Below, in pieces: positions 13,430 through 13,998 of a DNA stretch of 64,000 nucleotides. The notes beneath the pieces are model-generated. The model was given only the letters and a program-made list of their open reading frames with translations, searched no databases and was not told the origin of the DNA. Source of the stretch: an uncultured Chthonomonadaceae bacterium (GTDB taxonomy: Bacteria > Armatimonadota > Chthonomonadetes > Chthonomonadales > Chthonomonadaceae). The stretch covers positions 320,001 through 384,000 of the forward strand of contig CAWIEK010000053.1 in assembly GCA_963835065.1 (NCBI GenBank), written 5' to 3'. Position 1 is the first letter of the stretch; each line of letters begins with the position of its first letter. The position numbers were made by a program, and so were the translations under genes.

Positions 13430-13501
13430 AGCGGGAGACGAGATTCGAACTCGCGACATCTTCCTTGGGAAGGAAGCGCTCTACCACTGAACTACTCCCG
13501 C
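13430..13501 (-). tRNA. tRNA-Gly(CCC)
   Basis: GCGGGAG acceptor stem, CTTCC-TTCCCAA-GGAAG anticodon arm, GTTCGAATC T-loop. Confidence 0.95.
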
Positions 13502-13513
13502 AAAACTGACACA

Positions 13514-13918
13514 CTAAATCTCGAAATCTACAGCCCAACGTATATTCTTCGTTTGGTTGTTAGCTGGCGGATCAATTCGCAAGATACCTAATGATTGACT
13601 AACCGCTTCGCGTGGAACCAAATACGTTTTCTGGTTTGCCGGACAATACACACCGTAAAAATCTACTTTGTCGCCGTAACATTTACGAGTGTGTTTAGTT
13701 GCCCCTTGTTGAGCCATCGTATACAGATTGAATTGTACTGTACCCTGCTTTAGTCGACCGGTTTTACACTGGATACGATAAAAACAACCGTTTTCTTCCG
13801 TGACCAGATCGTAATCCTGCTGATTCCCAAAAGGGATGAGAACTGTTCTTCCGGCTTTTAAGAGCGCAGCAAGAATAACACCTTCTGTTGTGGTTCCAAC
13901 CTGTGTCGTATTAGCCAT
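13514..13918 (-). CDS. PD-(D/E)XK endonuclease resembling group I intron-associated I-Ssp6803I family
   Basis: G..TE..., IPFG...YDLV...YRIQCKTG, Y...VDFYGVYCP...YLVP, LRIDPP..NQ; GAGG RBS; AT-richer than flanks. Confidence 0.8.
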   Translation of the reverse strand: MANTTQVGTTTEGVILAALLKAGRTVLIPFGNQQDYDLVTEENGCFYRIQCKTGRLKQGTVQFNLYTMAQQGATKHTRKCYGDKVDFYGVYCPANQKTYLVPREAVSQSLGILRIDPPANNQTKNIRWAVDFEI

Positions 13919-13968
13919 ACAGAACCTCAACTAGACACGGATAAAAGAACCTTGCGGCTACTATACAC

Positions 13969-13998
13969 ATTATAAGCCTGCTGCAAGGTATTTGTCAA
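13969..13998 (-). promoter_or_regulatory. Consensus sigma70 promoter reading into endonuclease, tRNA-Gly and tRNA-Cys
   Basis: TTGACA-18 nt-TATAAT. Confidence 0.85.

Follow-up and report, generated by a model that had tools for sequence, protein, structure and literature searches.

The window, as we call the whole 64,000-nt stretch of DNA analysed here, probably carries an intron-free homing element, in which sequence comparison points to a predicted endonuclease accompanied by a likely cleavage-resistant 5' half and anticodon arm of tRNA-Gly(CCC). We infer that this half-gene and its arm are the cargo of the element. A preliminary description of the locus had taken the tRNA leader to be the niche of the gene. 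What it said of the nuclease family, the lack of an intron, the link to tRNA genes and the existence of empty alleles stands; the leader niche does not, and the description missed both the recoded anticodon stem and the leftover 5' tRNA fragment of relatives.

The locus and its nuclease

All parts of the locus lie on the minus strand (Table 1). As had been described, an AT-richer PD-(D/E)XK gene resembling I-Ssp6803I sits between a perfect promoter and tRNA-Gly(CCC), stops just short of the tRNA, and both tRNA genes are free of introns: no group I intron was matched within 12900-14500. The GC content of the gene is 43.5%, against 57% for the genome, and its GC3 is 0.37, against 0.73 in the adjoining M20 peptidase gene. 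A promoter scan of 12400-15200 returned one further candidate, a 9/12 site on the opposite strand. The tRNA-Gly(CCC) gene is the only one of its kind found in the assembly. The tRNA-Cys(GCA) gene natively follows tRNA-Gly(CCC) in relatives, whether or not they have the nuclease gene, and is outside the element.

Table 1. Parts of the tRNA-Gly(CCC) locus, in order of transcription (window positions).
Feature	Position	Strand	Remarks
Sigma70-type promoter	13969..13998	-	TTGACA-18-TATAAT, 12/12 consensus; read as the host-owned promoter of tRNA-Gly
Leader	13919..13968	-	50 nt; GAGG ribosome-binding-like motif 6 nt 5' of ATG
PD-(D/E)XK endonuclease gene	13514..13918	-	PF11645, I-Ssp6803I fold; 134 aa from ATG
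Spacer	13502..13513	-	12 nt, from nuclease stop codon to tRNA
tRNA-Gly(CCC)	13430..13501	-	Intact, uninterrupted
Anticodon arm of tRNA-Gly(CCC)	13460..13476	-	Stem CTTCC/GGAAG (C30-G40); predicted immunity determinant
tRNA-Cys(GCA)	13203..13274	-	Uninterrupted; 155 nt past tRNA-Gly(CCC)

Between the two tRNA genes lies a terminator-like hairpin (13361-13383, minus strand) that may limit read-through into tRNA-Cys. Just past tRNA-Cys, 7-nt repeats at 13103-13196 make up a long hairpin (-56 kcal/mol); heptamer runs like these are found by the dozen across the genome, also upstream of recA, and are REP-like. Rfam miRNA matches at 13100-13200 were dismissed, as they fall far under their cut-offs and reflect the repeat hairpin. 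RNA contigs at the locus cover the tRNAs only. In one contig from run X2, a promoter-side match is followed by an identical tRNA with 453 nt skipped between them, which is a hint, the short side being just 21 letters.

The window protein matches Pfam PF11645 (PDDEXK_5) over nearly the whole model with an E-value of 3.5e-32 and a score of 111.7 bits, the curated cut-off being 26.1; no NCBIfam family was matched. Its sole sequence match in the PDB is 2OST (E 0.005), the structure of I-Ssp6803I, which is also the top Foldseek match (E 4e-10, TM 0.75) of an AlphaFold model with a pLDDT of 89.8. D37, Q50 and K52, which we take to be the catalytic positions, are invariant across 43 homologs and align with D, Q and K of 2OST. 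The protein is a member of PF11645 by profile and by fold, encoded without the intron that houses I-Ssp6803I.

Among the best 80 of 231 loci, the closest titled record is a 93% identical protein from a Chthonomonadaceae genome (L005). The window's genome holds a second, divergent PF11645 gene (L002, G000:C44:22853-23266, plus strand), whose stop codon falls on the first base of tRNA-Pro(GGG). Truly intron-encoded members were seen solely in L115/L143 (G063/G325) and L142 (G138), within tRNA-Met(CAT) introns of about 650 nt; these are in this phylum, outside the cyanobacteria, and G325 has both an intron-encoded and a free-standing type. Across 72,556 plasmid records there was one weak partial match.

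Between the window's genome (G000) and G002, the nuclease gene has a dN/dS of 0.04 and a dS of 0.88, close to the 0.82 of a neighbouring gene, which indicates that it has long been resident and intact; a third strain with an intact gene was found in run X1. Such long co-inheritance under selection, together with a strong host promoter and with nuclease clades that largely follow host phyla (9 changes, minimum 6), would suit a former homing nuclease that has been domesticated and is kept for a benefit to the host, such as the cleavage of incoming phage or island DNA with the ordinary tRNA-Gly site. We consider this account unlikely. The distribution of PF11645 genes is patchy, with just 3 of 61 relatives and 14 of 301 phylum genomes carrying one, and none was found in G001, a 97% complete genome of the same genus that has the same downstream peptidase at the locus. 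The GC3 of the gene has not ameliorated, and the fresh tRNA fragments and scattered alleles presented below indicate recent movement in the same clade. A benefit to the host is in any case compatible with homing, the two being not mutually exclusive.

Association with tRNA genes across the family

Adjacency to tRNA genes is a near-universal property of the family homologs examined. A scan of GTDB genomes with an alignment confirmed 231 loci, and the counts given here rest on the best 80 by similarity. A tRNA gene lies within 200 nt in 72 of these 80, as the preliminary description would predict, against a background of 60 of the 6146 ORFs of the window's genome (1.0%); six more have a tRNA within 800 nt, and the last two break at a contig end inside a tRNA 5' end. 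The metagenome sample (best 80 of 531 loci) comprised 68 distinct proteins, of which 55 are encoded within 200 nt of a tRNA, 6 within 800 nt and 7 near none, 4 of these 7 being close to contig ends. Viral contigs gave no match to a single-protein scan; the alignment scan did match, and all 13 distinct viral proteins are encoded within 200 nt of a tRNA, in tRNA arrays. The search pattern favours this subfamily, so these fractions do not hold for PF11645 at large. On a tree of 140 nuclease proteins, from which tRNA arrays and short matches were left out, the type of the neighbouring tRNA changes 23 times for 19 types, and at least 76 times in each of 200 shuffles; since kin share tRNA labels, the test speaks to clustering only.

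For cultured viruses (21 records, 6 carrier regions examined), the gene adjoins tRNA-Asn or tRNA-Ile. The carriers include Ackermannviridae, Herelleviridae, T5-like and haloarchaeal viruses (L410-L413, L419, L420), where the gene stands beside tRNAs and is annotated as a hypothetical protein, a methyltransferase or a PD-(D/E)XK nuclease. In the window's genome, an array of 16 tRNA genes (G000:C49:430274-432286) is followed by a tyrosine integrase at 432742, and no PF11645 gene was found in that array.

One clade (L008, L013, L018-L022, L025, L043, L046, L048, L067) lies immediately 5' of tRNA-Asn(GTT) genes interrupted by ORF-less group I introns; ARAGORN mislabels these tRNAs as Asp or Thr. 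RF00028 was matched in 8 of 10 cases, with the nuclease beside the intron and not within it. This arrangement looks like collaborative homing, described from two phage systems, on bacterial chromosomes, and the ORF-less intron in tRNA-Asn would be an alternative way to destroy the same predicted site; neither applies to the intron-free window. A LexA-like box precedes the gene in 6 of 29 leader-type Thr(TGT) loci and in none of the 16 Gly(CCC) loci, the window included, and SOS control was rejected as a general feature on the latter count. The box lies about 25 nt upstream (88 nt in L124) in L024, L052, L216, L223, L224, L237, L054 and L124, which are actinobacterial-type loci.

The preliminary description held that the gene sits harmlessly in the pre-tRNA leader, from which RNase P removes it, and that homing cuts the promoter-tRNA junction of empty alleles. 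The anatomy of the window suggests as much, 40 of the 78 tRNA-linked genome loci share its geometry with the gene in sense orientation in the 5' leader, and the predicted empty alleles were indeed found: in gene-free relatives a consensus promoter mostly lies 7-60 nt before tRNA-Gly(CCC), and because it directly precedes the tRNA there we read the window promoter as the host's own. However, the remaining 38 loci place the gene antisense on the 3' side (19), in sense on the 3' side (9) or divergently on the 5' side (10), so that a leader removed by RNase P is not the principle. The leaders of empty alleles differ among genomes, leaving no conserved target, and the tRNA fragments described below end in the anticodon arm, which locates the insertion within the tRNA gene itself, as opposed to its leader. 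As it would also leave the recoding of the stem unexplained, we regard the leader niche as quite unlikely, somewhat more so than a domesticated nuclease. By eye, a promoter-like site stands between nuclease gene and tRNA in L147 and L230.

Recoded anticodon stems and leftover tRNA fragments

The proposal of an intron-free element with a tRNA cargo draws first on the anticodon stem. A tRNA-Gly(CCC) pattern was matched in 35/39, 21/32 and 32/42 genomes of three families, and 81 loci were examined; five matched genomes without loci, all G30-C40, were left out of the allele count. The G30-C40 allele accounts for 64 of the 81 loci, and none of these has the nuclease gene. The C30-G40 allele accounts for the other 17, three of which have it (the window's genome, G002 and G076). 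With the carriers G168 (L007) and G325 (L006) added, the gene is present in 5 of 19 C30-G40 genomes (Fisher p 4e-4, with kin not being independent), and all five Gly(CCC) carrier genomes have this allele. The window's C30-G40 sets it apart from 29 of the 32 matched genomes of its family, which are G30-C40. Flipping the 30:40 pair keeps the RNA stem paired; in the DNA, where the anticodon is the centre of a pseudo-palindrome, it changes a symmetric position, so that self and non-self alleles of tRNA-Gly(CCC) differ at the presumed target (gene in 0/64 vs 5/19). Fourteen gene-free genomes are also C30-G40, which counts against the proposal; on its terms, these would have lost the nuclease after homing. 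The window arm resembles that of the Gly(GCC) paralog in its own genome, and conversion by the paralog could therefore yield C30-G40 without a nuclease. The 11-bp core of the ordinary arm occurs four more times in the window's genome, which means that the recognition site must be longer.

Other lineages show related patterns. The Pro(GGG) arm beside the second paralog of the window's genome (L002) was seen in 1 of 26 family genomes. Among 29 Pyrinomonadaceae loci, the two majority arms are found in 14 gene-free loci and no carrier; the remaining arms belong to 9 carriers, of which 2 are partial remnants, and to 6 gene-free loci. Several of these carriers keep G30-C40, and one arm occurs both with and without the gene; these exceptions indicate that the discriminating base pair is lineage-specific, and a universal G30-C40 rule, which fails in this family, was rejected. 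In Ackermannviridae, two carriers share a tRNA-Asn stem that is present in 1 of 6 gene-free genomes, and a third carrier showed no tRNA-Asn. Beside the divergent nuclease genes of L149 and L150, a tRNA-Arg(GCG) has the stem CAACT/AGTTG, identical to the stem of the recoded Gly(CCC) allele in that family, through either shared origin or convergence.

The second line of evidence is a leftover piece of tRNA. In L006, L007 and L159, whose proteins are 63-73% identical, a 5' fragment of tRNA-Gly lies between promoter and start codon and breaks off where the 5' strand of the anticodon stem ends (p 0.0005 each), and a fragment is also significant in L160 (p<=0.005). The window leader has no detectable tRNA fragment (p=0.68), nor does that of G002 reach significance (p 0.25). 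We infer that the window leader is a decayed remnant of such a fragment, since it occupies the same place as in L006, L007 and L159; as a proven remnant it was rejected on that p-value.

More broadly, among 76 leader-type loci, 7 have a 5'-half match scoring at least 24 ahead of the gene, and 2 have such a match to the wrong half. All seven fragments end in the anticodon arm, and in all seven pairs compared the arm of the fragment differs from that of the intact copy. The fragment of L161 has a complete, different arm and probably comes from another tRNA, which leaves 6 of 7 cognate. Two other geometries contributed one case each, and L393 holds a fresh fragment. As 69 of 76 leader-type loci and 44 of 45 loci with the gene 3' of the tRNA score below 24, only a minority of loci show the fragment route, and ordinary co-conversion may operate at the 3'-side loci.

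The origin of two fragments can be traced. Those of G168 and G325 match the ordinary alleles of their respective neighbours on the rpoB tree, G126 and G350, whereas the intact tRNA copies of G168 and G325 share a CAACT arm. The tree covers 30 genomes of family f29, with rpoB replacing recA as marker because recA is duplicated in many of them. The CAACT arm is present in 10 of the 30, changes 8 times on this tree, and its monophyly is rejected (AU p=2e-53); judged by eye, the leaders and trailers around it track the host lineage. The nuclease is absent from 8 of the 10 CAACT genomes, which is what one would predict if fragment and new 5' end, being repeats of each other, allow excision of the gene.

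Several further arrangements were observed. In another clade, L193, L201, L203 and L231 contain clusters of the form nuclease-fragment-nuclease-tRNA, the window having a single gene; their tandem genes, separated by a tRNA 5' fragment, are antisense to tRNA-Gly(GCC), and in L231 the second copy is broken. L160 (1460-2160) is an orphaned copy, with a promoter, a short tRNA-Gly 5' fragment and a nuclease gene and no tRNA in the 600 nt downstream. In L156 (G089; 1938-2067, minus strand), the anticodon loop of a tRNA bears a 58-nt insert, too short for a complete group I intron, and this tRNA is followed by the nuclease gene and then by a duplicated tRNA 3' end.

Elements that integrate at tRNA genes typically leave partial tRNA duplications ending in the anticodon arm. 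The fragments would suit the remnant of an integrase island whose entry at the anticodon loop copied the 5' half of the tRNA to serve as an att site, with the nuclease as a passenger and the stems as differences between donor and recipient or products of paralog conversion, to which the likeness of the window arm to Gly(GCC) would also fit; this origin is very improbable, since neither the window's contig nor that of its paralog has a tyrosine integrase (there are 6 elsewhere in the genome) and 61 flanking ORFs from 33 loci (of 149 listed) held no integrase and one IS5-type transposase, and moreover the insert is always just the nuclease gene of about 0.45 kb and nuclease clade tracks tRNA type.

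For the homing element that we favour, the following cycle can be proposed. The enzyme would cut the ordinary G30-C40 allele in the DNA of its anticodon stem-loop, which is pseudo-palindromic, much as I-Ssp6803I does at tRNA-fMet. Repair would then proceed from the carrier copy, with the upstream tRNA fragment serving as left homology and the T-arm and acceptor end as right homology. The recipient's own 5' half would be pushed upstream, the nuclease would come under the control of the host's tRNA promoter, and downstream a complete tRNA would be rebuilt whose stem is different yet paired again. The base-pair flip would leave the RNA functional and destroy the DNA site, the role that the intron has in classical homing. 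The nuclease could later be deleted when the fragment recombines with the new 5' end, which would leave the resistant allele behind; in the window, the fragment would have decayed and the gene persisted. Phages or tRNA arrays may serve as vehicles for the donor DNA, and because the homology needed is that of the tRNA sequence only, jumps between genera would be possible.

On balance, and with somewhat less confidence than for the window itself, we lean towards reading most relatives of the gene, now annotated as group I intron-associated PD-(D/E)XK nucleases, as an unrecognised prokaryotic class of elements that resemble the yeast WHO elements and reside in bacteria, phages and archaeal viruses. 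In each clade, the anticodon arm of one tRNA type would be swapped for a re-paired, resistant arm, often with subsequent loss of the nuclease, and this would drive the evolution of anticodon stems and create short horizontal conversion tracts. The Asn clade would be an intermediate on the way to mobile tRNA introns.

If this is true, bacteria possess a form of gene-replacing homing, free of introns and inteins, that has so far been known from yeast nuclei and fungal mitochondria, and here it is aimed at tRNA genes. Rapid compensatory change in anticodon stems would then be explained by the evasion of DNA cleavage rather than by selection acting on translation, and free-standing nucleases and ORF-less tRNA introns would have a route by which to merge. 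The 'intron-associated' annotation of a widespread family would be corrected. Hundreds of nucleases of about 130 aa would each come with a predicted target that can be read from the genome, the ordinary allele, and with a resistant control, the linked allele, and would form a natural set for studying how specificity changes.

Comparison with known systems

The comparisons that follow draw on the accessible parts of the papers cited. In the literature searched, mostly outside subscription titles, we found no description of free-standing PF11645 genes at tRNAs, and the original accounts of I-Ssp6803I may mention free-standing homologs. Gene-replacing homing at bacterial tRNA genes was likewise not found in that literature; it is known from yeast and from fungal mitochondria. 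A superfamily survey reports a patchy distribution for PF11645 and, in its accessible part, nothing more (PMC3424549), and those of PMC8393795 and PMC10448857 hold no closer parallel.

I-Ssp6803I (2OST), a tetrameric enzyme encoded in a group I intron of a cyanobacterial tRNA-fMet, resembles the window protein in family, fold and tie to tRNA genes. Its target is long, 23 bp, and pseudo-palindromic (PMC3384342), and specificity for the anticodon region is named in the title of a paper cited in PMC3984707. Unlike it, the window gene has no intron, lies outside the tRNA and encodes a protein of about 20% identity; the tRNA concerned is tRNA-Gly(CCC), with at least 15 other tRNA types in the family, and protection would come from the recoded stem.

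SegB of phage T4 is the product of a free-standing gene in a tRNA region; it cleaves tRNA genes, and flanking DNA is carried along as it spreads (PMC2330249, PMC2988022, PMC13565253). It differs in being a GIY-YIG enzyme that is phage-borne and recognises a T-loop motif of many tRNAs, and the accessible parts of these accounts describe no replacement half-gene. The window's family, in contrast, keeps to one tRNA type per clade and is mostly chromosomal.

Replacement of part of a gene is known from hybrids with mobile ORFs in fungal mitochondria (Allomyces atp6; Glomus atp6, atp9, cox2 and nad3), where an endonuclease is inserted together with a foreign part-copy of its target gene (PMC3630166). 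The displaced native part matches a close relative there, as do the fragments of G168 and G325. Those cases differ in that they concern protein genes in organelles, LAGLIDADG-type ORFs and replacement of the 3' part (PMC3630166).

The closest working likeness of the window element is likely to be found in the WHO elements of the yeasts Torulaspora and Lachancea, in which a nuclease is paired with a resistant part of the host gene, free of introns and inteins (PMC7282813; bioRxiv 10.64898/2026.08.13.744650). The accessible text of the latter contains neither the word 'tRNA' nor the word 'phage'. The family of the window gene differs from them in its hosts, which are prokaryotes and viruses, in its target, tRNA genes and not FBA1, and in its enzyme, PD-(D/E)XK and not LAGLIDADG-zinc finger. 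It is the 5' part that would be replaced here, resistance would need compensatory base-pair changes, and the activity shown for WHO is predicted for our element. WHO elements share with close homologs of the window gene the displaced native fragment beyond the nuclease, with another clade of its family the tandem clusters with fragments, and with the carriers of family f29 the discordant phylogeny of the replaced part.
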